64,000 nt of DNA, from NCBI GenBank assembly GCA_964513645.1, contig CAZENF010000001.1, forward strand, positions 71,303 to 135,302. The letters are read 5' to 3'. This DNA comes from an uncultured Candidatus Saccharibacteria bacterium. Lineage in GTDB: Bacteria; Patescibacteriota; Minisyncoccia; 2-02-FULL-40-12; GWA2-44-9. The notes beneath the pieces were generated by a model. It was given only the letters and a program-made list of their open reading frames with translations, ran no database searches and was not told the origin of the DNA. The stretch's first letter is position 1, and each line of letters starts with the position of its first letter. A program made the translations under genes and the position numbers. Of this stretch, positions 9,236-62,923 are shown piece by piece.

Positions 9236-9401
9236 TATATATTGCCGGCCGCTCTCGCCTTAAGATTTGGCGAGCAAGCTCTTGGCCAACTTCTTCGTTA
9301 AAATCTCCGCTTGCTCGTCATCATACTTATAGTATGTTTCCTCGCAATGCTCGATTTTGCCTTGAATTTAGCCAAGCCGGCTGCGTTCTAAATTTTTCAG
9401 A

Positions 9402-15358: not shown

Positions 15359-15472
15359 TTAACCTTGTCTTTGTTTATGCTTGGGATTCTTGCAGATACA
15401 ATACAGACGGCCTTTCCGTCTGACTAATTTGCAATTATTGCACATTTTTTTTACAGAAGCCCGTACTTTCAT
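15359..15472 (-). CDS. rpmJ: 50S ribosomal protein L36
   Basis: Not in the ORF track because it is under 60 aa. Translated by eye on the minus strand: [37 protein letters not shown] (37 aa, C4 zinc ribbon), in the conserved position between infA and rpsM. Confidence 0.8.
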
Positions 15473-15596
15473 CCCGTACAAAGTAGCCCTTACAGGGCTT
15501 GAAGGTCAAATGTTTGACTTTCAAATCCATGCGAGAACTCACCACATCCCGTCCAAGTATTTGCTACTTTGTTCGGGATTCACACATATTTAAAAC

Positions 15597-15971: not shown

Positions 15972-17942
15972 TCAATTCCCGTAATCTACGGTCAATTTTA
16001 TCCGGCTGCGGTCGGTCGGAACCTTAAAAACCCAGAAAGGCGATAGAATAACCCTGGCCGAAGTTACTCCGTCAACTCCTTTTATATATTCCTTGATGCC
16101 ATCTGAATTTTTACCCATCAGATCCGAAATTATTTTTTCCTGATCTACTGTCTGATAAACATTACCTTTAACCGCAACCGTAAAAGTCATTACCTTCTGA
16201 TCTTTATCAAAATTAACATTATCAAATTTTATATCCAGTTTATCTGGAAATACTGTCACTTGGTTTGCATTTTGAATTATCCTTGTTATGAGATCGTCAA
16301 AATCAGATTGTTTGAATCCGACAGTGTTAAGCGTAGCCGTGCCAGAAACAGTAAAGGTATCAGCCGCTTGATCTACCTGTGCGCTTGAAACAATATCGCC
16401 CATTTCCGGTGCGACATTGTCCAGGATCTTTAACTGGGCCGCCTGGCCTTTAAGGTCATTCTTAATATCTTCTGCCAGTTTTTTCTGAACAGCATCTTTG
16501 GCTTTTGCATAATCATCCTGGGTAACTACCTTGGCTTTTCCGATTATACCGCCGACCATCGCTTTATCTGCCTGGCCGTAAATTTTACCGTACCGGTCCA
16601 TGTCCCCTTTTTCTTTAAAAGCCGGCATCGTAAATTTCCCGGGACTTATATTATACGTATCACCCGCCTTATCGGCTATAACTTCAACGTCGATAGTTCC
16701 CGGTATTATCTTTCCGTTGACGACCTTTGTTCCGGGAACGGTAACGTTCTTTAATGTCCTGAATATCAGGCCATTGGAATTTTCGAAACGTGTCGTGGCA
16801 ATAAGTATCTGGTATGTGGTTCCGTACTCATTGTAGATTGTGATTGTGCCGCGCGCTTTTTGTGCTACATCTTTCTCGCCGGTCGAAGGAAAAGTCTGGT
16901 CTTCTTTTTTACTTAGAGAAAAAAGTTGGCCGGGTATTCTTTTCAAAGCCGGGTCGACGGAAGAATAAGAATCCGAAACGCTTATTTTTATTCCGGAAAA
17001 ATCAACCGGAGAAACTTTGGGTTTAATTATCAATTCTGCCTTGCCCATTGAAACATAAAGCACGAAGCCAAAAATTATAACCACCCCTAATCCGTAAAGA
17101 TAGAGCGTTTTTTTGGATAAATTAGAAACCCATTTACCGACCGGAAATCCTGGCAACTTGTAACCTTCGGTCGGACCGGCATATATCTTTTGAGGAACTT
17201 CGCGCCCCAGAGGTTCTTGAGGAGTCGGCATAGCACGCACGGGAGGAGACTCACGTCTTGATTGCCAAACATTTTGTATCTCATTCATTGCCGACCTTTC
17301 AAGCATTTTGCTTTTTACCGACTGCGAGCGCCTGAACTCGCGTCTAACTTCAACATCAAACGGTTGTTCTGCAGTCTCATCAACCTTAACACTCACTGGG
17401 TCTTCTTTTTCAGGCTGGATAATATCGTCCATTGATTTTGAAACCTTAGCCGCCGCAAGCACTGCGCTTTCTTCGGGATCAAGTTCCGGCGTTTCAGACG
17501 AACCATAATCAACTTCATCATAAGAAGGGCTTTTAAAACCTTCAGAATCATCTTCGTTCCGCATCTCATCTCTGGCAGTATTTGTTTCTTGATATTGGTC
17601 GTCCTTATCTTCTTCCTCGACATCTTCCTCGACATCTTCCTCGACATCTTCCTCGACATCTTCATCGGCTTCTTCTTCATCATCACTCTCACTGGTTAGA
17701 ATTCCAAAATTATAACTCGAAGCCATGGCATTTATCTCCGGATTTTCGCTTAAGATAAGGACGGCCTTATCTAATTCTTCGGAAACATCGGCTAAAAGAG
17801 AGAAATTATCTTCTTTGGCAAAAGCTTTCGGTCTTTTGGGCAAAACAAAAATGACCTCATCGGCCTGAGCTTTCTTGAAAATCTCGAGTATATCACTGAA
17901 CTTATCGTCCCGGAGGACGTTGATTATCTTTGTCCCCGCCAT
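15972..17942 (-). CDS. hypothetical single-pass membrane protein with acidic EEDV repeat region
   Basis: 656 aa. A conserved-looking N-terminal domain of about 85 aa, an acidic low-complexity region (EEDVEEDVEEDVEEDVEE), one TM helix (LYLYGLGVVIIFGFVLYVSM) and a C-terminal extracytoplasmic domain of about 340 aa. No family recognised. It sits where secY-adk-map normally precede infA. Confidence 0.5.
   Translation of the reverse strand: MAGTKIINVLRDDKFSDILEIFKKAQADEVIFVLPKRPKAFAKEDNFSLLADVSEELDKAVLILSENPEINAMASSYNFGILTSESDDEEEADEDVEEDVEEDVEEDVEEEDKDDQYQETNTARDEMRNEDDSEGFKSPSYDEVDYGSSETPELDPEESAVLAAAKVSKSMDDIIQPEKEDPVSVKVDETAEQPFDVEVRREFRRSQSVKSKMLERSAMNEIQNVWQSRRESPPVRAMPTPQEPLGREVPQKIYAGPTEGYKLPGFPVGKWVSNLSKKTLYLYGLGVVIIFGFVLYVSMGKAELIIKPKVSPVDFSGIKISVSDSYSSVDPALKRIPGQLFSLSKKEDQTFPSTGEKDVAQKARGTITIYNEYGTTYQILIATTRFENSNGLIFRTLKNVTVPGTKVVNGKIIPGTIDVEVIADKAGDTYNISPGKFTMPAFKEKGDMDRYGKIYGQADKAMVGGIIGKAKVVTQDDYAKAKDAVQKKLAEDIKNDLKGQAAQLKILDNVAPEMGDIVSSAQVDQAADTFTVSGTATLNTVGFKQSDFDDLITRIIQNANQVTVFPDKLDIKFDNVNFDKDQKVMTFTVAVKGNVYQTVDQEKIISDLMGKNSDGIKEYIKGVDGVTSARVILSPFWVFKVPTDRSRIKLTVDYGN
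17609..17668. repeat. 12-nt tandem repeat (catcttcctcga) x about 4.5 inside the CDS
   Basis: Seen directly. It encodes the (EEDV)n tract, and the antisense ORF MSRKMSRK is an artefact of this repeat. Confidence 0.8.
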
Positions 17943-17954
17943 TACCTTTCAATC

Positions 17955-18899
17955 TTACCACGATTTAGCTAAAAGCAAATCAACAGCTTCTTTTTTACCC
18001 TTAGTATCCATCAATTTAGCCCTGAACTCCTTGGCTCCGGGATAATTATTGATATATATCTTAAAAAATCTCTTCATAACATCAAAGTTCTTTCCTTCGG
18101 GCCAAAGTTTATCAAAATTATTGATATGCTTTAGCAATATCTTTACCCTCTCTTCCGGTTCGGCAACATCTCGGCCCGAGAAAAACCACGGATTTTGGAA
18201 TATTCCCCTGCCAACCATAATTCCGTCGAGACCGTATTGTTCGGCTTTTTGCTTTAGATCTTCCATGTTAACGACATCTCCGTTCCCGATAAATATTTTT
18301 CCTGAATTTCTAACGGTATCTAAAATTTTACCCAATTCATCCCAATGAGCCGGAACTTTGGACATTTCCTTGCGAGTCCGAGCATGAATTGATAAAGCTG
18401 TTATATCCGTATCGATAAGATGTTTCGGCCAATCAGGTTCAATCCTGTTGTAGCCAAGACGAGTTTTAACAGATACCGGAAGCGGACCCGCTCCACGAAT
18501 AGTTTCTTTGATAACCTTCTTTGCCAACTCCGGATCTTTTATCATCATCGCTCCGGCACCTTGTTTTTCCACCGACTTATCCGGACAACCCATGTTTATG
18601 TCTATTCCGTCAAAACCAAGTTCTTGGGCTAATTGGGCGCAGCGATACATGTTTTCAGGCACGGCTGAAAAGAACTGGACTACAATCGGCCTTTCGTTCT
18701 TTTCAAAATATAGTTCACCCCTGAATTTTTCTTTTCCAACCGCACATATCCCGTCGGCTGAAATAAATTCCGTGAAAAAAACATCCGGTCTCCCGGTTTC
18801 GATAATTATCTGCCTGAAGGCCCAATCGGTCACATTTGCCATCGGCGCCAGGACCGTAAAGGGCTTTTTTAACTTCTGCCAGAAATTATTCGTGGTCAT
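17955..18899 (-). CDS. dus: tRNA-dihydrouridine synthase (DusB-like)
   Basis: TIM-barrel flavoprotein motifs (LAPMANVTDWAFRQI, DGIDINMGCP). 314 aa. Confidence 0.85.
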   Translation of the reverse strand: MTTNNFWQKLKKPFTVLAPMANVTDWAFRQIIIETGRPDVFFTEFISADGICAVGKEKFRGELYFEKNERPIVVQFFSAVPENMYRCAQLAQELGFDGIDINMGCPDKSVEKQGAGAMMIKDPELAKKVIKETIRGAGPLPVSVKTRLGYNRIEPDWPKHLIDTDITALSIHARTRKEMSKVPAHWDELGKILDTVRNSGKIFIGNGDVVNMEDLKQKAEQYGLDGIMVGRGIFQNPWFFSGRDVAEPEERVKILLKHINNFDKLWPEGKNFDVMKRFFKIYINNYPGAKEFRAKLMDTKGKKEAVDLLLAKSW

Positions 18900-18900
18900 A

Positions 18901-19127
18901 GCAGAATTATATCCCTATCTCCGACCGGATGTCCAAAATCTCTGCGCATTTTGGCACCCTATCCCCTCGGCATTTCGAAGATCCGTTGTTAAGTCCGTGC
19001 TTATTTGTTACCGAAAATTATTCGTCAAAGCTCTAATTTTCGAACAAATGGGCACGACCGCCTTACGGCGCCTTATTGATGAGCCGAAATGCCTGCGGGA
19101 AATTCGGACTTAGAGATATAATTCTGC
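18901..19127. other. candidate structured RNA or MITE-like element bounded by 13-bp inverted repeats, strand unresolved
   Basis: gcagaattatatc at 18901-18913 pairs with gatataattctgc at 19115-19127. The 200-nt interior is GC-rich with several internal helices. It has weak, topologically inconsistent resemblance to RNase P CR-I and CR-V. Confidence 0.3.
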
Positions 19128-19182
19128 TATTTTGTTTAGCTATTTTAGTAAAAACATAGAATTTAACAGGAAAAAGCTAATC

Positions 19183-19211
19183 TTGTAATTACCCATAAAG
19201 CATGGTATAAT
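19183..19211 (+). promoter_or_regulatory. sigma70-like promoter (TTGTAA, 17-nt spacer, TATAAT)
   Basis: Read directly. The RBS AAGGATGGGG and the ATG at 19234 follow. Confidence 0.5.
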
Positions 19212-19233
19212 GATAGCAAAGGATGGGGCTGAA

Positions 19234-19452
19234 ATGGAAAAAATCTACAATTACCCCGTATTCGGAACACAGGGCGGAGGACTGGTTCGAGAAGTCAGCC
19301 AGAATCTGTATCGCTACGTCTTCATCGAGAAGCCCGATTGTCCAGGACTGGACGTCGGCGACTTCATGCCTGAGCAGTGGGACATAATTCCCGCCAATCA
19401 GTCAGCTCGCGACCAGCTATTCGATGAGCAATTTGGCCCAAACGCCAACTAA
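19234..19452 (+). CDS. hypothetical 72-aa protein with GC-rich codon usage
   Basis: Own promoter and RBS. MEKIYNYPVFGTQGGGLVREVSQNLYRYVFIEKPDCPGLDVGDF... Followed by a near-palindromic hairpin (agacagagac-ctcgag-gtctcgtgtct) and a U-rich tract at 19466-19510. Its GC content is well above the genome background. Confidence 0.4.
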   Translation: MEKIYNYPVFGTQGGGLVREVSQNLYRYVFIEKPDCPGLDVGDFMPEQWDIIPANQSARDQLFDEQFGPNAN

Positions 19453-19700
19453 CCTCGTGTAAGACAGAGACCTCGAGTCTCGTGTCTGGCACGGGGTTTT
19501 CTGTTTGATAAACAACCAATAATTAAGCGAGGGGGACTGGCCATCTGAGACACTGGAGACCCCGAAATTGGACGATGGTATAATGTAGGCCGATAGGCCA
19601 CCATCGGACAATTTCCGGGCGATTGTAGCTGAGGTCGGATAACTCACGGAGGAGTTATCCGACCGGAGGCGTGTCGGAAGATGGCTGGTCTCTTGAGCAA

Positions 19701-20540
19701 TTATAAATTCAATAAAAAATTCTCAAGCGCCAGCCGATGATTGTATTGAGGCTGGGAGATGAGGCCTTGAAGCGAAAGCAGGTCTTTAATTATTTTTTCA
19801 TTCTTGGGCGATGCGGCAATATGAGCGGAAACCCAGCCGAGCCAATATTCAACCGTCGGGCGGTAGTTCTCGGATTCATTTAATTTTTTAGCGTAATCCA
19901 TTCTCTCATATACACCCGAATTCAATAATTTACGCAGGTCGTCAATTGCTTTTCTCGCATTATCTATCCCTTTCTCATTTATTAATTTTTCCATTAGGCC
20001 TATCCGGCCGCCGGCAAGTTTAAGTAAAAAATCTTTATCTTCTTGATTCACTTTTTTTCTGTCCAAATATAATCCCGCCTCTTTATCATTTGTGCAATTA
20101 AAAATAACTTTTTCGCACCTTGAAACTATTGTCGGCAATATCAGGCCCGGCAATGAACTGACAAGGATGATAACAGAGAAACCGGGCGGCTCTTCGAGAA
20201 GTTTCAAAAGCGCATTCGACGCCTCGCCTGTCATATTATGAACATCATCAATAAGAGCCATTTTGTAAGGCCCTTGAGGTTTGAGTTTGAAGAAGGATTT
20301 TAATTTTCTTATCTCGGTGATGGATATTTTGTGTTCTTCCTCTGAATCCGGACCAAGCTTGATAAAATCAGGTTCACTCGACAATTCACGGCCATTAAGT
20401 GAGCGCAAGAACTCGAGAGCAAAAGTCCTTTTGCCCGTCATTTCCGGACCGGTAAATAAATAGGCATGGGCAAGGTTGCCATTGGTCATGACATTATGAA
20501 AATATTTCTTCTGACGATTGTGACCGGTTATGTTTCCCAT
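19701..20540 (-). CDS. holB: DNA polymerase III delta' subunit
   Basis: AAA+ clamp-loader motifs LAHAYLFTGPEMTGKRTFALEF and SRCEKVIF. 279 aa. Confidence 0.8.
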   Translation of the reverse strand: MGNITGHNRQKKYFHNVMTNGNLAHAYLFTGPEMTGKRTFALEFLRSLNGRELSSEPDFIKLGPDSEEEHKISITEIRKLKSFFKLKPQGPYKMALIDDVHNMTGEASNALLKLLEEPPGFSVIILVSSLPGLILPTIVSRCEKVIFNCTNDKEAGLYLDRKKVNQEDKDFLLKLAGGRIGLMEKLINEKGIDNARKAIDDLRKLLNSGVYERMDYAKKLNESENYRPTVEYWLGWVSAHIAASPKNEKIIKDLLSLQGLISQPQYNHRLALENFLLNL

Positions 20541-31584: not shown

Positions 31585-32135
31585 AAAAACGAAAAAGACC
31601 GAACTATTCGAGTTCGGTCCGGACTTCCTTCCTTGTTCTTTCTTTTTCCTTATGCCGACGATATTTGCCGCCTTTAAGGGTTTTGTGAGGTCCGCCGGTT
31701 TGCATAAGAACCGGGAGCCTGACTTTCAGGTAGAGAGGTTTGTCTTTTTTAACCATATCTCCTGGATTATAACAAATCCCACCAAAATTTTCACGAATTG
31801 AAAACTTTGGTGGGAGGCCAAGGAAGAATTCACTTGGCTTGGGTAGTTTTTCCTGGAACATTCCTACCTCTGGCCTGTTTCGGCTTGTCGCCGTCCCGCA
31901 GCTGGGGGTTGCGGAATTTTTCGTCGGACACAGCAGGCTCCGACTAGATGAAACGGCGCTATCCCTTTTTGGGAGCAGGTTTACCGCCGCAGGGTGTAGA
32001 GATCATACGCTTTTGGAAAGCGCACTGTTGGCGGTCAATTTCCGCCTTCTCACGCCCTGACCAAGTGTACCCCTTTTTTCGGAGCAACATGGTTGCTTCA
32101 TCGGCCAAGTCCTTATTAGACTTTGCCATAAACAC
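31585..32135 (-). promoter_or_regulatory. long structured 5' leader, a candidate riboswitch or attenuator, ending in a terminator hairpin 30 nt upstream of the P-type ATPase start
   Basis: Minus-strand promoter-like TTTACT-17-TAATAT at 32141-32169. A GC-rich multi-helix region at 31870-32110. A 15-bp hairpin at 31771-31811. A terminator, gaccgaact-attcg-agttcggtc plus a U-run, at 31598-31620. Weak M-box-like strings (GUCAGGCUCC, GGCAUAAGG). It contains an 85-codon ORF (31604-31861) with RBS GAGGT that may be a leader peptide. Confidence 0.4.
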
Positions 32136-38688: not shown

Positions 38689-38701
38689 GTTTGATTTAAG
38701 C

Positions 38702-38836
38702 AAATGGCTATATTCTTTCGCTACCGTTCGCTCGCCCAACGAGCTCGCTCACTGCCTTTCGTCGGTCGCTCTCTCGCTTCGCTCGAACCATGCCCGCTTC
38801 CCTCCTCGAAGCGCGCGAGAAGAACATAGCTATTTG
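38702..38836 (-). promoter_or_regulatory. GC-rich structured leader element, copy A of a two-copy family, immediately 5' of atpA
   Basis: Conserved core shared with 48281-48431: ttcgctaccgttcg ... cactgccttcgtcggtcgctc ... gaaccatgcccgcttccctcctcRaagcgcgcgagaag. It is flanked by copy-specific terminal inverted repeats of 13-15 nt that covary between the two copies. Confidence 0.5.
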
Positions 38837-38847
38837 CTTAACTAATT

Positions 38848-46906: not shown

Positions 46907-48286
46907 CTAAATTATATCACTATTTTTAATATGTGTCAATAATCCGGCCGAGAACCAGAACACTATCCTCCCCTGCTGAAGGGTCATTAAAAAATGGTCG
47001 AAAAAGCCAATGAACAAAACAGAGATGAAAAAAAACAGAACCGAAAGCTGGTAAGATTTACTAAGCTTTGTCTTCAGGATAAAATCTTTTAACAAAAAAT
47101 ATAAAAATAAAATGAATGCCGTCAGACCTAAAAGACCGGTTTCTGAATAGATGAGCAGGTATATGTTATGGACCGGCTGATAAGCATAATTAGGAAGCAT
47201 CGGCTGTTTTTCCATCAGCCAGTTCACGAAATTACCAGCACCTACGCCAAGAAAATTAATTCCCCCTCCAGTCATTAAAGCCACTTTGTTGTAAAAACCC
47301 CTTAGTTCTACGGCCTGATCATCCGGGTTTATAGTTGAACGGGTTATTATAGCTTTGAAATAAATTGAACCGAAAAGGAGAATAACCACAAAACCCGCAA
47401 TAAGAATGGCTTTTATACGTTGCCGGCTTTCATCGGTCCCAAATATTATTCGGTAATGTTTTCTTGATAAAATTATTATGCCACGAATACAAAAAGTGAT
47501 GAACCAGATAAAAATAACGACCCTCGAAAAGGTCGCAAAAAACCCAAAAAGGATAACGCCGTAGGACAAAATAAAAAATTTATCCCAGTTGTCTGATAAG
47601 GGGCTGTGCTCTACATGAATCTTCGAATATAAATAAACAAAATAAAACGCAAAAATGGATAAGAACAGAGAACCAGCCAGAACGTTCGGATGCGGAGTTG
47701 TGCCATAAGCACGTATGAATTTATCCCCGTTTTGAAGATAGAATGAAGCCACCCCGGCAAGTTCTTTGTTCAGAACGCTTTCACCCAGATATTTAAGCCC
47801 CAGGCTTGATTGTTTGAACAACTGGGTCATTGCGATCAAGGCTTGGAAAACTCCTCCGGATAATATTGCCAAGAATGTTTTATATAAATCGAATTTGGCT
47901 AAAGCGTATCTCGAGATATAAAAATAAAAAACAACAAATTCAACTAATTTAAACCATTGATACCAACTAACCGTAATGTTGGTCGAATTTTTTATAGAAA
48001 TAAGAGAGATGGTCAAAAAAATAACAAGCCAGGGGTCAGACGTTTTAAGCTTTGATTTTAAAAATTCAAACTTGTTCGGAGGTTGGAATTTAGGATTTGT
48101 GTTTTTTTGATAAGAGTTTAAAAACCAAAAAATAAATAAAACGGCCAGTAATATATCCGTCAGATAAACACTGACCGATAGCCATTCATTAAAACGCCAA
48201 TCCGAATACCATAAGATCTTCCTGGTCTCAAAAGGAATACAAAACAAAAAAACATAAAAAAGACATTTTTCGAGTTTCAGAAACAT
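46907..48286 (-). CDS. O-antigen ligase / Wzy-like polytopic membrane protein
   Basis: 459 aa, more than 10 TM helices and a large periplasmic loop. Confidence 0.5.
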   Translation of the reverse strand: MFLKLEKCLFYVFLFCIPFETRKILWYSDWRFNEWLSVSVYLTDILLAVLFIFWFLNSYQKNTNPKFQPPNKFEFLKSKLKTSDPWLVIFLTISLISIKNSTNITVSWYQWFKLVEFVVFYFYISRYALAKFDLYKTFLAILSGGVFQALIAMTQLFKQSSLGLKYLGESVLNKELAGVASFYLQNGDKFIRAYGTTPHPNVLAGSLFLSIFAFYFVYLYSKIHVEHSPLSDNWDKFFILSYGVILFGFFATFSRVVIFIWFITFCIRGIIILSRKHYRIIFGTDESRQRIKAILIAGFVVILLFGSIYFKAIITRSTINPDDQAVELRGFYNKVALMTGGGINFLGVGAGNFVNWLMEKQPMLPNYAYQPVHNIYLLIYSETGLLGLTAFILFLYFLLKDFILKTKLSKSYQLSVLFFFISVLFIGFFDHFLMTLQQGRIVFWFSAGLLTHIKNSDII

Positions 48287-48431
48287 GGCTTTAACCTTTC
48301 GCTACCGTTCGTATTCCCAGCGAGAATCCTCACTGCCTTCGTCGGTCGCTCCCTTGTCCTTCGGACAAGAACCATGCCCGCTTCCCTCCTCAAAGCGCGC
48401 GAGAAGGTTAAAGCCATGTTTCTTAATTATC
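48281..48431 (-). promoter_or_regulatory. GC-rich structured leader element, copy B, overlapping the start codon of the Wzy-like gene
   Basis: Same conserved core as 38702-38836. It has perfect 15-nt terminal inverted repeats, aaacatggctttaacc and ggttaaagccatgtt, that include the ATG at 48284-48286. It also has an internal C(UUCG)G tetraloop hairpin. Confidence 0.5.
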
Positions 48432-62073: not shown

Positions 62074-62329
62074 AAAAATAAAATGTGAGATAGTTGGTTA
62101 TATTTATTTTAAAACCAGCGAAGCTCTTTTATTTCGTAGACCGTCTTTTTTCGAGCGGCTAAATGCTTAAATTAATTAAAAATTAAGTTATTCAACAAAT
62201 TTGAGGGGAGGTCTTCCGACGAGGCTCAAATTTGTTAGCTTAATTGAGATTAATTTAAACATTTAGCCATGAAGATAAAAAGTAGGTCGAAAAATGAAAG
62301 GGCAAAGCAATTAAAATAAATATCCCAAA

Positions 62330-62923
62330 CTATCTCTTCCCCAATATCTTTAACGCCTCCCTTACCCTTTCCTCCAAAGTTTTACCTTTTGATTCTTTCA
62401 AAGCCTCCTTGGCCTGATATTGAGTATAGCCAAGAGCCAGAAGTGCTTCGACGGCCTGACCCTCCTGACCCAAATCAACGCCTTTCATGTCGCCGATATC
62501 AAGAAAATCTATCTTATTCTTAAGCTCAAGCACCAAACGCTGGACGGTTTTGGGACCAAGTCCGGAAACTTTTTTTAAGTAATCTGCGTCTTCGTTCACG
62601 ACTGCAGCTTTTAAATGTTTGGGTTCAACGACTGACAGAATATTCATCGCACCTTTTGGACCAATGCCGGAGACCGAGGTCAACAAATGGAATAGGTCCA
62701 AATCCTCTGATTTATCGAATCCGTACATATCAAAAGTCCCTTCACGCATATTGAGTTGCGAATGAGTAAACAGCTTAACTTTGCCATTGACATCCTCCCT
62801 GGTTTTTGATAGAATATTCACTAACTTGGGAGAGACTATTACCCTGTACCCTATACCACCGGCACTCAAAACGACCTGTTTTTCACCCAAATGTTCAATT
62901 TTACCTTCGAGAAAACTGATCAT
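62330..62923 (-). CDS. ruvA: Holliday junction branch-migration protein RuvA
   Basis: N-terminal OB fold (MISFLEGKIEHLGEKQVVLSAGGIGYRV) and HhH pairs (GIGPKGA, GLGPKTVQRL). Confidence 0.85.
   Translation of the reverse strand: MISFLEGKIEHLGEKQVVLSAGGIGYRVIVSPKLVNILSKTREDVNGKVKLFTHSQLNMREGTFDMYGFDKSEDLDLFHLLTSVSGIGPKGAMNILSVVEPKHLKAAVVNEDADYLKKVSGLGPKTVQRLVLELKNKIDFLDIGDMKGVDLGQEGQAVEALLALGYTQYQAKEALKESKGKTLEERVREALKILGKR

Follow-up and report, generated by a model that had tools for sequence, protein, structure and literature searches.

The stretch of DNA analysed here (the window) comprises 64 kb of contig CAZENF010000001.1 (positions 71,303 to 135,302 of the forward strand), assigned to an uncultured Candidatus Saccharibacteria bacterium. 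Within it, the interval 18900-19700 separates the genes dus and holB, both of which lie on the minus strand, as an earlier note made from the letters alone had stated and as the Pfam matches confirm (Table 1). Three units separated by AT-rich spacers were distinguished in this interval: a closed, branched structured element (E1), a small open reading frame (ORF) with its own promoter and terminator, and a second structured element (E2). The presence of a structured block at this site, the central observation of the earlier note, stands and is beyond chance. The left arm of E1 shares 2 nt with dus, i.e. the first two bases of its start codon (ATG, 18899-18897), while the holB stop codon is separated by 6 nt from the end of E2. 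The block had also been called GC-rich, which holds for the small ORF and E2 (GC content 0.50-0.54) and not for E1 (~0.47) or the spacer that follows it (~0.36); the flanks have a value of ~0.41. By the relatives of its Dus protein, the organism belongs to Patescibacteria, i.e. the Candidate Phyla Radiation (CPR), with the best matches in Parcubacteria-type metagenome-assembled genomes (MAGs).

E1 is delimited by a perfect inverted repeat. The 13-nt repeats described previously at 18901-19127 are real, and their true length is 16 nt (helix P1 in Table 1), or 27 nt at 89% identity. Exact inverted repeats of at least 15 nt with a spacing of 50-320 nt occur twice in the window versus never in 10 composition-preserving shuffles. 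The predicted minimum free energy (MFE) of E1 is -90.5 kcal/mol on the plus strand and -99.6 kcal/mol on the minus strand (z = -9.2 and -8.5, respectively), and 0 of 200 shuffled sequences folded as well. P1 encloses a hairpin (P2) and a helix (P3), the latter composed of two segments, a C/G-rich P3a and P3b, with an asymmetric internal loop between them (UC opposite UGC). In the window, P1 is followed by the tract UUUUGUUU. The sequences bordering the element (...TCGTGGTC on the left and TTTGTTTAG on the right) contain no direct repeat. One copy of E1 and one copy of E2 are present, the count covering the 64-kb window and not other parts of the genome. A 10-nt exact direct repeat, TCCGACCGGA, is common to E1 (18920-18929) and E2 (19658-19667), which is near chance for 800 bp.

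Approximately 100 loci carrying homologs of the small ORF were collected, and these were the source of E1 relatives (W denotes the window copy, L-numbers the fetched loci and P-numbers the homologous proteins). Three further members were recognised, i.e. L002 2716-2930 (identical in L003), L291 1-~175 (truncated on the 5′ side where the contig stops) and L293 754-620 (identical in L294), so that members of the family span 135-233 nt. P1 comprises 16, 21 and 19 bp in the three complete members, and its sequences in L002 and L293 are unrelated to that of W, yet paired over 19-21 bp. The P2 stems all differ in sequence and are all paired (4/4), and the loops they close resemble one another (CUCUGCGC, UCCAGCG, UCCAGCG and UCCUGCG). 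The members also share a joiner rich in pyrimidines, and the internal loop of P3 is invariant. The 5′ core motif CCCTCGGC is kept in W, L002 and L291 and reads TCCTCGGG in L293, while P3b shows compensatory changes across the four members (GGCAUUUCG/CGAAAUGCC, GGCCUUUCA/UGAAAGGCC, GGCAUUUUCA/UGAAAAUGCC and GGGCUUGA/UCAAGCCC). The interior enclosed by P3b ranges from one hairpin in L293 to several in L002, and its length and architecture vary also in L291. The covariation of P1, P2 and P3b, as seen in four members, gives good evidence of a qualitative kind that selection acts on the predicted fold.

A family descriptor (long closing helix, P2 loop UCC(A/U)GCG, P3 with the UC/UGC loop between G-C pairs, and variable interior) is matched by W, L002 (= L003), L291 and L293 (= L294). 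No further convincing member was found with it in 292 loci, including 80 dus loci of other CPR genomes (491 kb); L293 and L294 were fetched after this search and recognised by eye. The scan of viral contigs for the 3′ motif of E1 gave 115 chance-level matches, 0 of them with a paired 5′ motif. E1 is absent from Rfam 15, and no description of it was found in full-text literature searches.

In W, L002 and L291, E1 closely precedes the strong promoter of the small-ORF operon and has the same orientation, with 84, 41 and ~84 nt, respectively, between its conserved 3′ motif GCCTGCGGG and the -35 box. The L002 member starts 6 nt past the stop codon of the upstream gene, which is TrwB-like, and CUGUUUUUG comes after its closing helix. 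In L293 the element is inverted and lies downstream of the operon terminator, between convergent genes, the other of which encodes a GH26 glycosidase. All four members are found ~100-500 nt from a small-ORF homolog. Since the other neighbours differ (dus, TrwB-like, GH26), the small ORF is the sole common neighbour, and the orientation relative to it is not fixed. Both the covariation and the linkage to this gene are real, as far as four members can tell. E1 represents a new, small and structurally conserved family linked to the small-ORF gene, and its broad kind, a conserved structured intergenic element, is a known one.

The strand on which E1 might act is less clear. Read on the small-ORF strand, the non-Watson-Crick pairs of the consensus helices are G·U in L002 (two), L291 (one) and W (two), while the single A·C of P1 in L293 equals G·U if read on the opposite strand. 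The MFE is equal for both strands in L002 and L291 and favours the opposite strand in W and L293. No sigma-70-like promoter scoring at least 8/12 was found upstream of E1 on the plus strand in W or L002, and the minus-strand sites near E1 are only weak candidates in the AT-rich spacer of W and L291. In view of this mixed evidence, E1 was assigned to neither strand, nor to RNA versus folded DNA, and the RNA gene considered earlier is not established. The best minus-strand promoter-like site of the whole block (TGGACA-18-TATAAT) is carried inside E1. With a -10 box ending 6 nt ahead of the ATG of dus, this site would yield a leaderless or near-leaderless dus mRNA. This putative promoter, and the fact that any 3′ end of a holB transcript must fall within the block, cast doubt on the earlier statement that the flanking genes do not need the block for their expression.

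The promoter, 72-amino-acid (aa) ORF and terminator had been described previously as a self-contained unit, and the scans and the family alignment agree with this. The start codon at 19234 was set by the family alignment; an alternative ATG at 19210 falls inside the -10 box. The search revealed 138 homologs at E <= 0.01, all of them CPR-type and none with a Pfam domain, and the best 120 listed are 57-77% identical. Every sequence of the family alignment keeps the motif TQGGGL and one P, one W and one N residue, and CPG, VGD and several other positions are nearly invariant. Differences from the window gene amount to 0.28, 0.22 and 0.59 for the first, second and third codon position, respectively (5744 aligned codons), with 2009 synonymous codon changes. 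The third-position excess and the synonymous changes constitute a clear coding signature, by which the small ORF is predicted with confidence to be a genuine, strongly conserved protein-coding gene. Its high GC content is explained by the composition and conservation of the protein.

The AlphaFold (AF2) model of the small protein is a beta-rich small domain with a C-terminal helix (predicted local distance difference test score, pLDDT, 84), which had no significant match in PDB or BFVD. The sequence gave no match in Pfam, PHROG, NCBIfam or PDB, and tblastn searches of phage records were likewise without a match. No conserved neighbour genes of the small ORF were found in 98 loci. Its promoter is conserved in L291 (TTGTAATT..ATAAAG.ATG.TATAAT), where the protein is 73% identical to that of W. 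The corresponding promoter of L002 matches the consensus at 12/12 positions (TTGACA-18-TATAAT, with TG), and a promoter similar by eye lies upstream of the operon in L292, though E1 is absent there. The terminator stem (19475-19499) and the T-run TTTTCTGTTTG are those of a canonical intrinsic terminator, and the homology between W and L291 in this region stops at ~19528.

Several additional features of this gene family were observed. A subset of the homologs (P0024, P0016, P0014, P0018 and P0034; loci L002, L291 and L292) carries an N-terminal extension of ~25 residues with two CxxC-like pairs. This CxxC..CxxC extension could be a zinc ribbon and possibly a nucleic-acid-binding module. In several loci the small-ORF gene closes a short operon; the genes before it (65, 196, 212 or 253 aa) are unrelated and encode no Pfam domain. 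In the contig of the close homolog P0002 (2285 bp, JGI sample 3300045391), the ORF is followed by 800 nt free of genes. Homologs were also found in six IMG/VR contigs classed as viral (L168-L173, up to 310 kb), which may be CPR phages or misclassified CPR genome fragments.

Downstream of the terminator, stems had been noted at 19534-19693. They are real and form part of E2, a three-way junction. Its closing helix measures 16 bp, and the other parts are a 5-bp helix, a long hairpin with interruptions and a perfect hairpin of 13 bp (19633-19645 / 19652-19664), the last reported earlier as 12 bp. The fold of E2 has an energy of -97.8 kcal/mol on the plus strand (z = -9.6) and -75.8 kcal/mol on the minus strand (z = -7.3), a gap of 22 kcal/mol. 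The closing helix contains five G·U pairs, and as an inverted repeat of the DNA it amounts to just 12 nt at 83%. The strand bias and the weak DNA repeat argue for a plus-strand RNA and against a transposon-type inverted repeat. E2 begins exactly at the end of the W-L291 homology (~19528). No promoter-like site reaching 7/12 was found between the small-ORF terminator and E2, so transcription of E2, if any, would occur by read-through. No U-tract follows E2 on the plus strand, and its borders (...AAGCGAG on the left and GAGCAATT on the right) contain no direct repeat. A covariance model of E2 run over 176 sources (175 fetched loci and the window) retrieved only E2 itself. An 11-nt exact direct repeat, ATGGTATAATG, is shared by the -10 region of the small-ORF promoter (19202-19212) and the apical part of the long hairpin of E2 (19575-19585), and is near chance.

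Table 1. Features of the dus-holB region of the window (positions are those of the 64-kb stretch)
Feature	Position	Strand	Basis or remarks
dus (tRNA-dihydrouridine synthase), left flank	17955..18899	-	Pfam PF01207, E = 8e-61; ORF list
E1, closed branched structured element, 233 nt, member of a 4-locus family	18898..19130	+ (= small-ORF strand by convention)	fold z; relatives
E1 P1 left arm	18898..18913	.	16 perfect bp with 19115-19130
Putative dus promoter inside E1, TGGACA-18-TATAAT	18906..18935	-	consensus scan 11/12
E1 P2 hairpin (CCAAAAT / ATTTTGG, loop CTCTGCGC)	18933..18954	+	paired in all four members
E1 core 5′ half: TCCC (P3a) - TC (loop) - GGCATTTCG (P3b)	18962..18977	+	alignment of members
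E1 variable interior	18978..19084	+	long hairpin 18996-19009 / 19043-19056 (2 G·U on +) and small CGCC/GGCG hairpin
E1 core 3′ half: CGAAATGCC (P3b) - TGC (loop) - GGGA (P3a)	19085..19100	+	GCCTGCGGG conserved
E1 P1 right arm, then T-rich run TTTTGTTTAG	19115..19130	.	pairs with left arm
AT-rich spacer, E1 to small-ORF promoter	19131..19182	.	GC ~0.36; poorly conserved among W, L291 and L002
Small-ORF promoter, TTGTAA-17-TATAAT with extended TG	19183..19211	+	scan, 10/12; conserved in relatives
Small ORF, 72 aa, conserved CPR protein family	19234..19452	+	homologs; codon signature
Intrinsic terminator, two-tier hairpin then TTTTCTGTTTG	19456..19509	+	scan; close conservation with L291
E2, three-way junction, 165 nt	19531..19695	+	fold; orphan
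holB (DNA polymerase III delta′), right flank	19701..20540	-	Pfam PF13177, E = 5e-33

None of the units of the block is a known non-coding RNA (ncRNA), and none fits a miniature inverted-repeat transposable element (MITE). The Rfam search suggested in the earlier note matched no family at the gathering threshold in the window, and the matches at E<5 across the window are weak, chance-level ones, none located at the structured elements. The region 18700-19900 gave no real match even at E<10, nor did Rfam yield anything real in L002, L291, L289 and L008. No tRNA or transfer-messenger RNA (tmRNA) genes were found in the window with ARAGORN. The blastn comparison of E1, E2 and the whole block with the fetched loci, phage records and plasmids matched the small ORF only. 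Several specific candidates were rejected. A hammerhead core (UGAUGAG...GAAA) is present in W only and is unconserved; the tandem G·A pairs of a kink-turn (K-turn) are absent; for a Frpo-like single-strand promoter there is no -35 in the stem, and the context is one of chromosomal housekeeping genes. For E2, a DnaA box or origin was considered on account of TTATCCGAC in the hairpin, but the GC skew has no turning point.

Alignment with relatives, another check suggested earlier, revealed that the whole block is missing from the nearest relative by Dus (L008, 78% identity), but not that the site is cleanly empty there, as the gap holds other content. The holB ... dus order is kept in L008, and E1, the small ORF and E2 are all absent. 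The 830-bp gap contains an element closed by inverted repeats and, on the opposite strand, an ORF for a 130-aa membrane protein, both unrelated to the block of the window. The element (L008 678-880) is AT-rich, 200 nt long, has a 24-bp closing helix, lies a few bases from the holB stop and, like E2, is more stable antisense to holB. The holB-dus gap is therefore a variable spot with a recurring layout, i.e. a small gene on the opposite strand and a closed element abutting holB. Two structured segments also accompany the small-ORF operon of L289. A rod-like closed element (~1525-1745) with a T-run after it precedes the operon and its TTGACA-17-TATAAT promoter, and a 125-nt three-way junction with a 22-bp closing helix (~2800-2925) lies downstream of the terminator. 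This layout parallels that of E1 and E2; the sequences are dissimilar. Homology of E2 to the downstream junction of L289 was rejected, since the outlines are alike but the sequences mismatch and the E2 model has no match there.

Comparable structures are frequent in the window, where 8 of the 15 gaps longer than ~140 nt contain a segment at z <= -4.4. Long perfect inverted repeats in other CPR loci are rare and clearly non-random (8 in 491 kb versus 0-1 in shuffles). Two of the eight segments, R48 and R38 (48276-48426 and 38696-38841), are copies of one repeat of ~150 nt, 80% identical and each closed by an inverted repeat of 22-23 nt. The interior is conserved, the arms partly covary, both copies end with TTAAG...CTTAA, and no Rfam family matches. 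Both are ~9 kcal/mol more stable on the minus strand, which is the gene strand. One copy (R38) fills the gap between atpH (OSCP) and atpA in the ATP synthase operon, while the second copy extends over the annotated start of a Wzy_C-type gene. Another element, R62 (62087-62336), is rod-like, 250 nt long, closed by a 26-nt inverted repeat and placed between ruvA and a gene for a 157-aa protein. Its homologs (nhmmer, E = 1e-54 and 2e-18) were found at L291 927-1109, directly downstream of the small-ORF terminator, and at L009 4194-4416, downstream of dus in a Yanofskybacteria MAG. In the L291 homolog the plus strand is favoured by 31 kcal/mol. R62 and these homologs make up a second conserved element family that is undescribed.

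Further stable intergenic segments were observed at 9236-9395, 15434-15593 (inverted repeat 15471-15487 / 15563-15579), 31681-31840 (17-bp hairpin 31777-31815) and 1180-1339, with z of -4.7 to -6.8 or long-range inverted repeats. Long ORFs of the window (1-64000) are nearly all on the minus strand. The gene adjoining dus (15972-17942) encodes a 656-aa protein with a long, acidic and repetitive N-terminal region (DEEEADEDVEEDVEEDVEEDVEEE) and without a significant Pfam domain.

We tentatively propose that E1 and E2 serve as cis-acting structural boundary modules on either side of a gene cassette inserted head-on, a possible reading of the locus that we hold with less than even confidence. The small gene would be transcribed on its own, from a strong promoter to an efficient-looking terminator, head-on between holB and dus. 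Either strand of E1 and E2, once transcribed, would form closed multi-helix structures, and these would stop or pause RNA polymerase and/or block exonucleases, thereby delimiting three transcription units. E2, together with the terminator, would keep transcription of the small ORF from entering holB in antisense, while E1 would part the cassette from dus and supply the -35 and -10 elements that dus may now use. Several observations are consistent with such a role. Both folds are very stable, the E1 family combines covarying helices and an invariant internal loop with a variable interior, and the promoter, ORF and terminator of the small gene are conserved. A T-rich tract follows the closing helix in W and L002, and in L002 E1 comes right after a stop codon. 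Other structured elements replace E2 at the same position beside the small ORF in L291 and L289, and elements of unrelated sequence closed by inverted repeats start within a few bases of the holB stop in both W and L008. The promoter-like site of dus is carried inside E1, and closed elements occupy other tight gene junctions, e.g. that of R38. The near-equal stability of E1 on both strands and its unfixed orientation (L293) fit a boundary element working both ways. That the E1 family accompanies the gene family in either orientation suggests that its core may also be a binding site for some factor.

Other observations weigh against this proposal. In W the closing helix of E1 is AT-rich and encloses ~200 nt, unlike an efficient intrinsic terminator, and E1 lies between divergent genes, with no plus-strand transcript there that would obviously need termination. 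As no E2 homolog was found, the structure of E2 is a purely thermodynamic prediction. E1 is missing from the vicinity of ~90 of the 98 small-ORF loci, including the close relatives L001, L089, L289 and L292, and its link with the gene is partly a matter of ascertainment, because lineage-matched DNA was sampled mostly around the small ORF. The invariant internal loop and the conserved hairpin loop also exceed the needs of a passive barrier. These loops resemble a specific recognition site, and for this reason a partner or regulatory RNA and a recombination site are retained among the alternatives considered below.

The somewhat unlikely, though plausible, alternative is that E1 and E2, like R38/R48 and R62, are selfish or neutral non-autonomous structured repeats (MITE-, REP- or Correia-like) settling in scarce intergenic gaps, the spot beside the small ORF being merely permissive, i.e. 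AT-rich and close to a terminator and a promoter. Such repeats would account for elements in tight junctions, such as R38 inside the atp operon, for the two-copy R48/R38 family and the three different contexts of R62, for both orientations of E1, for the absence of the block from the holB-dus gap of the nearest relative and for the differing element families found at the same positions beside the small ORF across genomes. Pairing that is near-perfectly Watson-Crick and roughly strand-symmetric points the same way. However, neither E1 nor E2 is bordered by a target-site duplication, each is single in 64 kb, no transposase partner was identified, and the five G·U pairs in the closing helix of E2 make a poor DNA inverted repeat. 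Moreover, the arms of E1 are not conserved while its core is kept and its helices show compensatory changes, which argues for long-term selection on the fold rather than recent transposition; a variable arm with a conserved interior is the reverse of a MITE, the option raised in the earlier note. It is rather unlikely, in our estimation, that E1 defines a class of structured nucleic acid not seen before (RNA, or single-stranded DNA, ssDNA, in folded form) whose invariant UC/UGC loop and P2 loop are read by a dedicated factor, possibly the conserved 72-aa protein encoded beside it. The two would together form a hitherto unknown CPR-specific ribonucleoprotein, autoregulatory circuit or mobile cassette system, and E2, R62 and R38/R48 would add to an unexplored patescibacterial repertoire of structured intergenic modules. 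Unlikely too is a functional RNA tied to the small protein, either as its binding partner or autoregulatory target, with the same loops as recognition site, or as a divergent or adjacent ncRNA. All four E1 members lie near a small-ORF homolog despite their differing other neighbours, none was found in the 491 kb around dus of 80 other CPR genomes, the conserved loops are set in covarying helices, some of the small proteins carry the CxxC..CxxC extension, and weak minus-strand promoter-like sites are present in the spacer of W and L291. Against this, there is a convincing E1 promoter on neither strand, the orientation relative to the gene flips in L293, the small protein has no recognisable RNA-binding fold, and the many gene loci without E1 and the ascertainment bias already mentioned apply here as well.

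The remaining explanations are far less probable. E1 might be an attC-like recombination site acting as folded ssDNA, so that E1 and the promoter-ORF-terminator unit would be a mobile cassette landed between holB and dus. We consider this very unlikely, although the unit is compact, self-contained and found in varied genomic contexts, the outer helix is kept in structure and not in sequence, the terminal part is variable, and the fold is strand-symmetric with an orientation relative to the ORF that can flip. The RYYYAAC/GTTRRRY boxes are absent from the outer ends in W, L002 and L293, E1 precedes the ORF at three of the four loci and does not follow it, there is no cassette array, and no integrase was seen beside the E1-bearing loci, though no systematic integrase search was made; large evolutionary distances could alone account for the differing contexts. 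Read on the minus strand, E1 could also be a 5′ leader of dus, its closing helix hiding the ribosome-binding region and the AUG, so that it would work like a riboswitch or a regulator of translation. The P1 arm of W indeed spans -14 to +2 of dus, the minus-strand fold is 9 kcal/mol more stable, and weak minus-strand promoters lie to the right of E1. This reading is highly improbable and essentially excluded, as E1 was found at 0 of 80 other dus loci, its minus strand faces the 3′ end of a convergent gene in L002 and follows the small-ORF operon in L293, and the better promoter inside E1 would bypass the leader. A riboswitch or cis leader was also rejected in general terms, given that E1 precedes the small-ORF promoter in W, L002 and L291, comes after the operon in L293, and is present at 1 of 81 dus loci; searches for a known aptamer or leader class gave only weak, chance-level Rfam matches elsewhere. 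Finally, there is next to no probability that E1 is a reduced ribonuclease P (RNase P) RNA or another known housekeeping ncRNA missed by Rfam in CPR, and this is likewise essentially excluded. The strings AAGUCCG and CGGACUUA, which resemble the two P4 strands and had been noticed earlier together with a doubt that proved right, do exist in W. The MFE structure does not use them as the suggested helix and instead pairs CGGA with UCCGA at 18920-18924, and they are missing from L002, L291 and L293. The covariance models gave no match up to E<10, neither the size (135-233 nt) nor the architecture suits the ~330-400 nt of catalytic and specificity domains, and the members occur in differing genomic contexts and in either orientation.

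To our knowledge, almost nothing is known of the non-coding elements in the small, densely packed genomes of CPR/Patescibacteria. In the 64 kb examined here no Rfam family was found, yet about half of the larger gaps hold very stable folds. Material for follow-up is provided by the four-member E1 family, with its covariation and invariant loop, beside the gene of a strongly conserved small protein, whose promoter is close to consensus, and by E2, an orphan strand-specific fold, along with signs that modules of this sort flank transcription units or shift from one to another. A functional link between the protein and E1, should there be one, would make the pair a tractable way into the RNA or DNA biology peculiar to CPR. 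Otherwise, the locus would caution that GC-rich structured islands in CPR genomes are often neither known ncRNAs nor MITEs.

As regards known systems, the likeness of E1 to RNase P RNA is confined to two short P4-like strings and a long terminal helix, the strings being unconserved and the size and architecture wrong. MITEs have terminal repeats conserved among copies, whereas the arms of E1 are perfect within each member and unrelated between W, L002 and L293. With integron attC sites E1 shares a fold kept without the sequence of the outer helix, a variable terminal structure and a compact gene unit in varied contexts; it differs in the lack of R′/R′′ boxes, in that the conserved part is internal, in that no integrase or array was seen and in that the cassette has its own promoter.

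Repetitive extragenic palindromic (REP) sequences and bacterial interspersed mosaic elements (BIMEs), enterobacterial repetitive intergenic consensus (ERIC) sequences and the Correia elements of Neisseria are closed by inverted repeats, measure 100-250 nt, lie between packed genes, even inside operons, and can be co-transcribed. They can stabilise or terminate mRNA and can carry outward-facing promoters. The putative dus promoter inside E1 and the position of R38 between atpH and atpA recall these elements. Unlike them, E1 and E2 are single-copy in 64 kb and have no target-site duplications or associated transposase, and E1 has unconserved arms around a kept inner core and is linked to one gene family. 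Intrinsic or bidirectional terminators and insulators of the synthetic-biology kind resemble E1 in the stable helix followed by a T-rich tract (W and L002), in the location between convergent genes (L293) and in the placement at the borders of a strongly promoted unit. In contrast to terminators, the closing helix of E1 encloses 100-200 nt of branched structure and is AT-rich in W, a separate canonical terminator follows the ORF, and the conserved loop is not explained by termination. From the orphan structured RNA motifs that Rfam holds from comparative genomic screens of intergenic regions, E1 differs in lying upstream of the promoter of its gene and not in the 5′ untranslated region, and the E1 family, outside Rfam 15, numbers four known members with an unfixed orientation; like these motifs, however, E1 combines a conserved core, covarying helices and a variable insertion domain with an association to one gene family.

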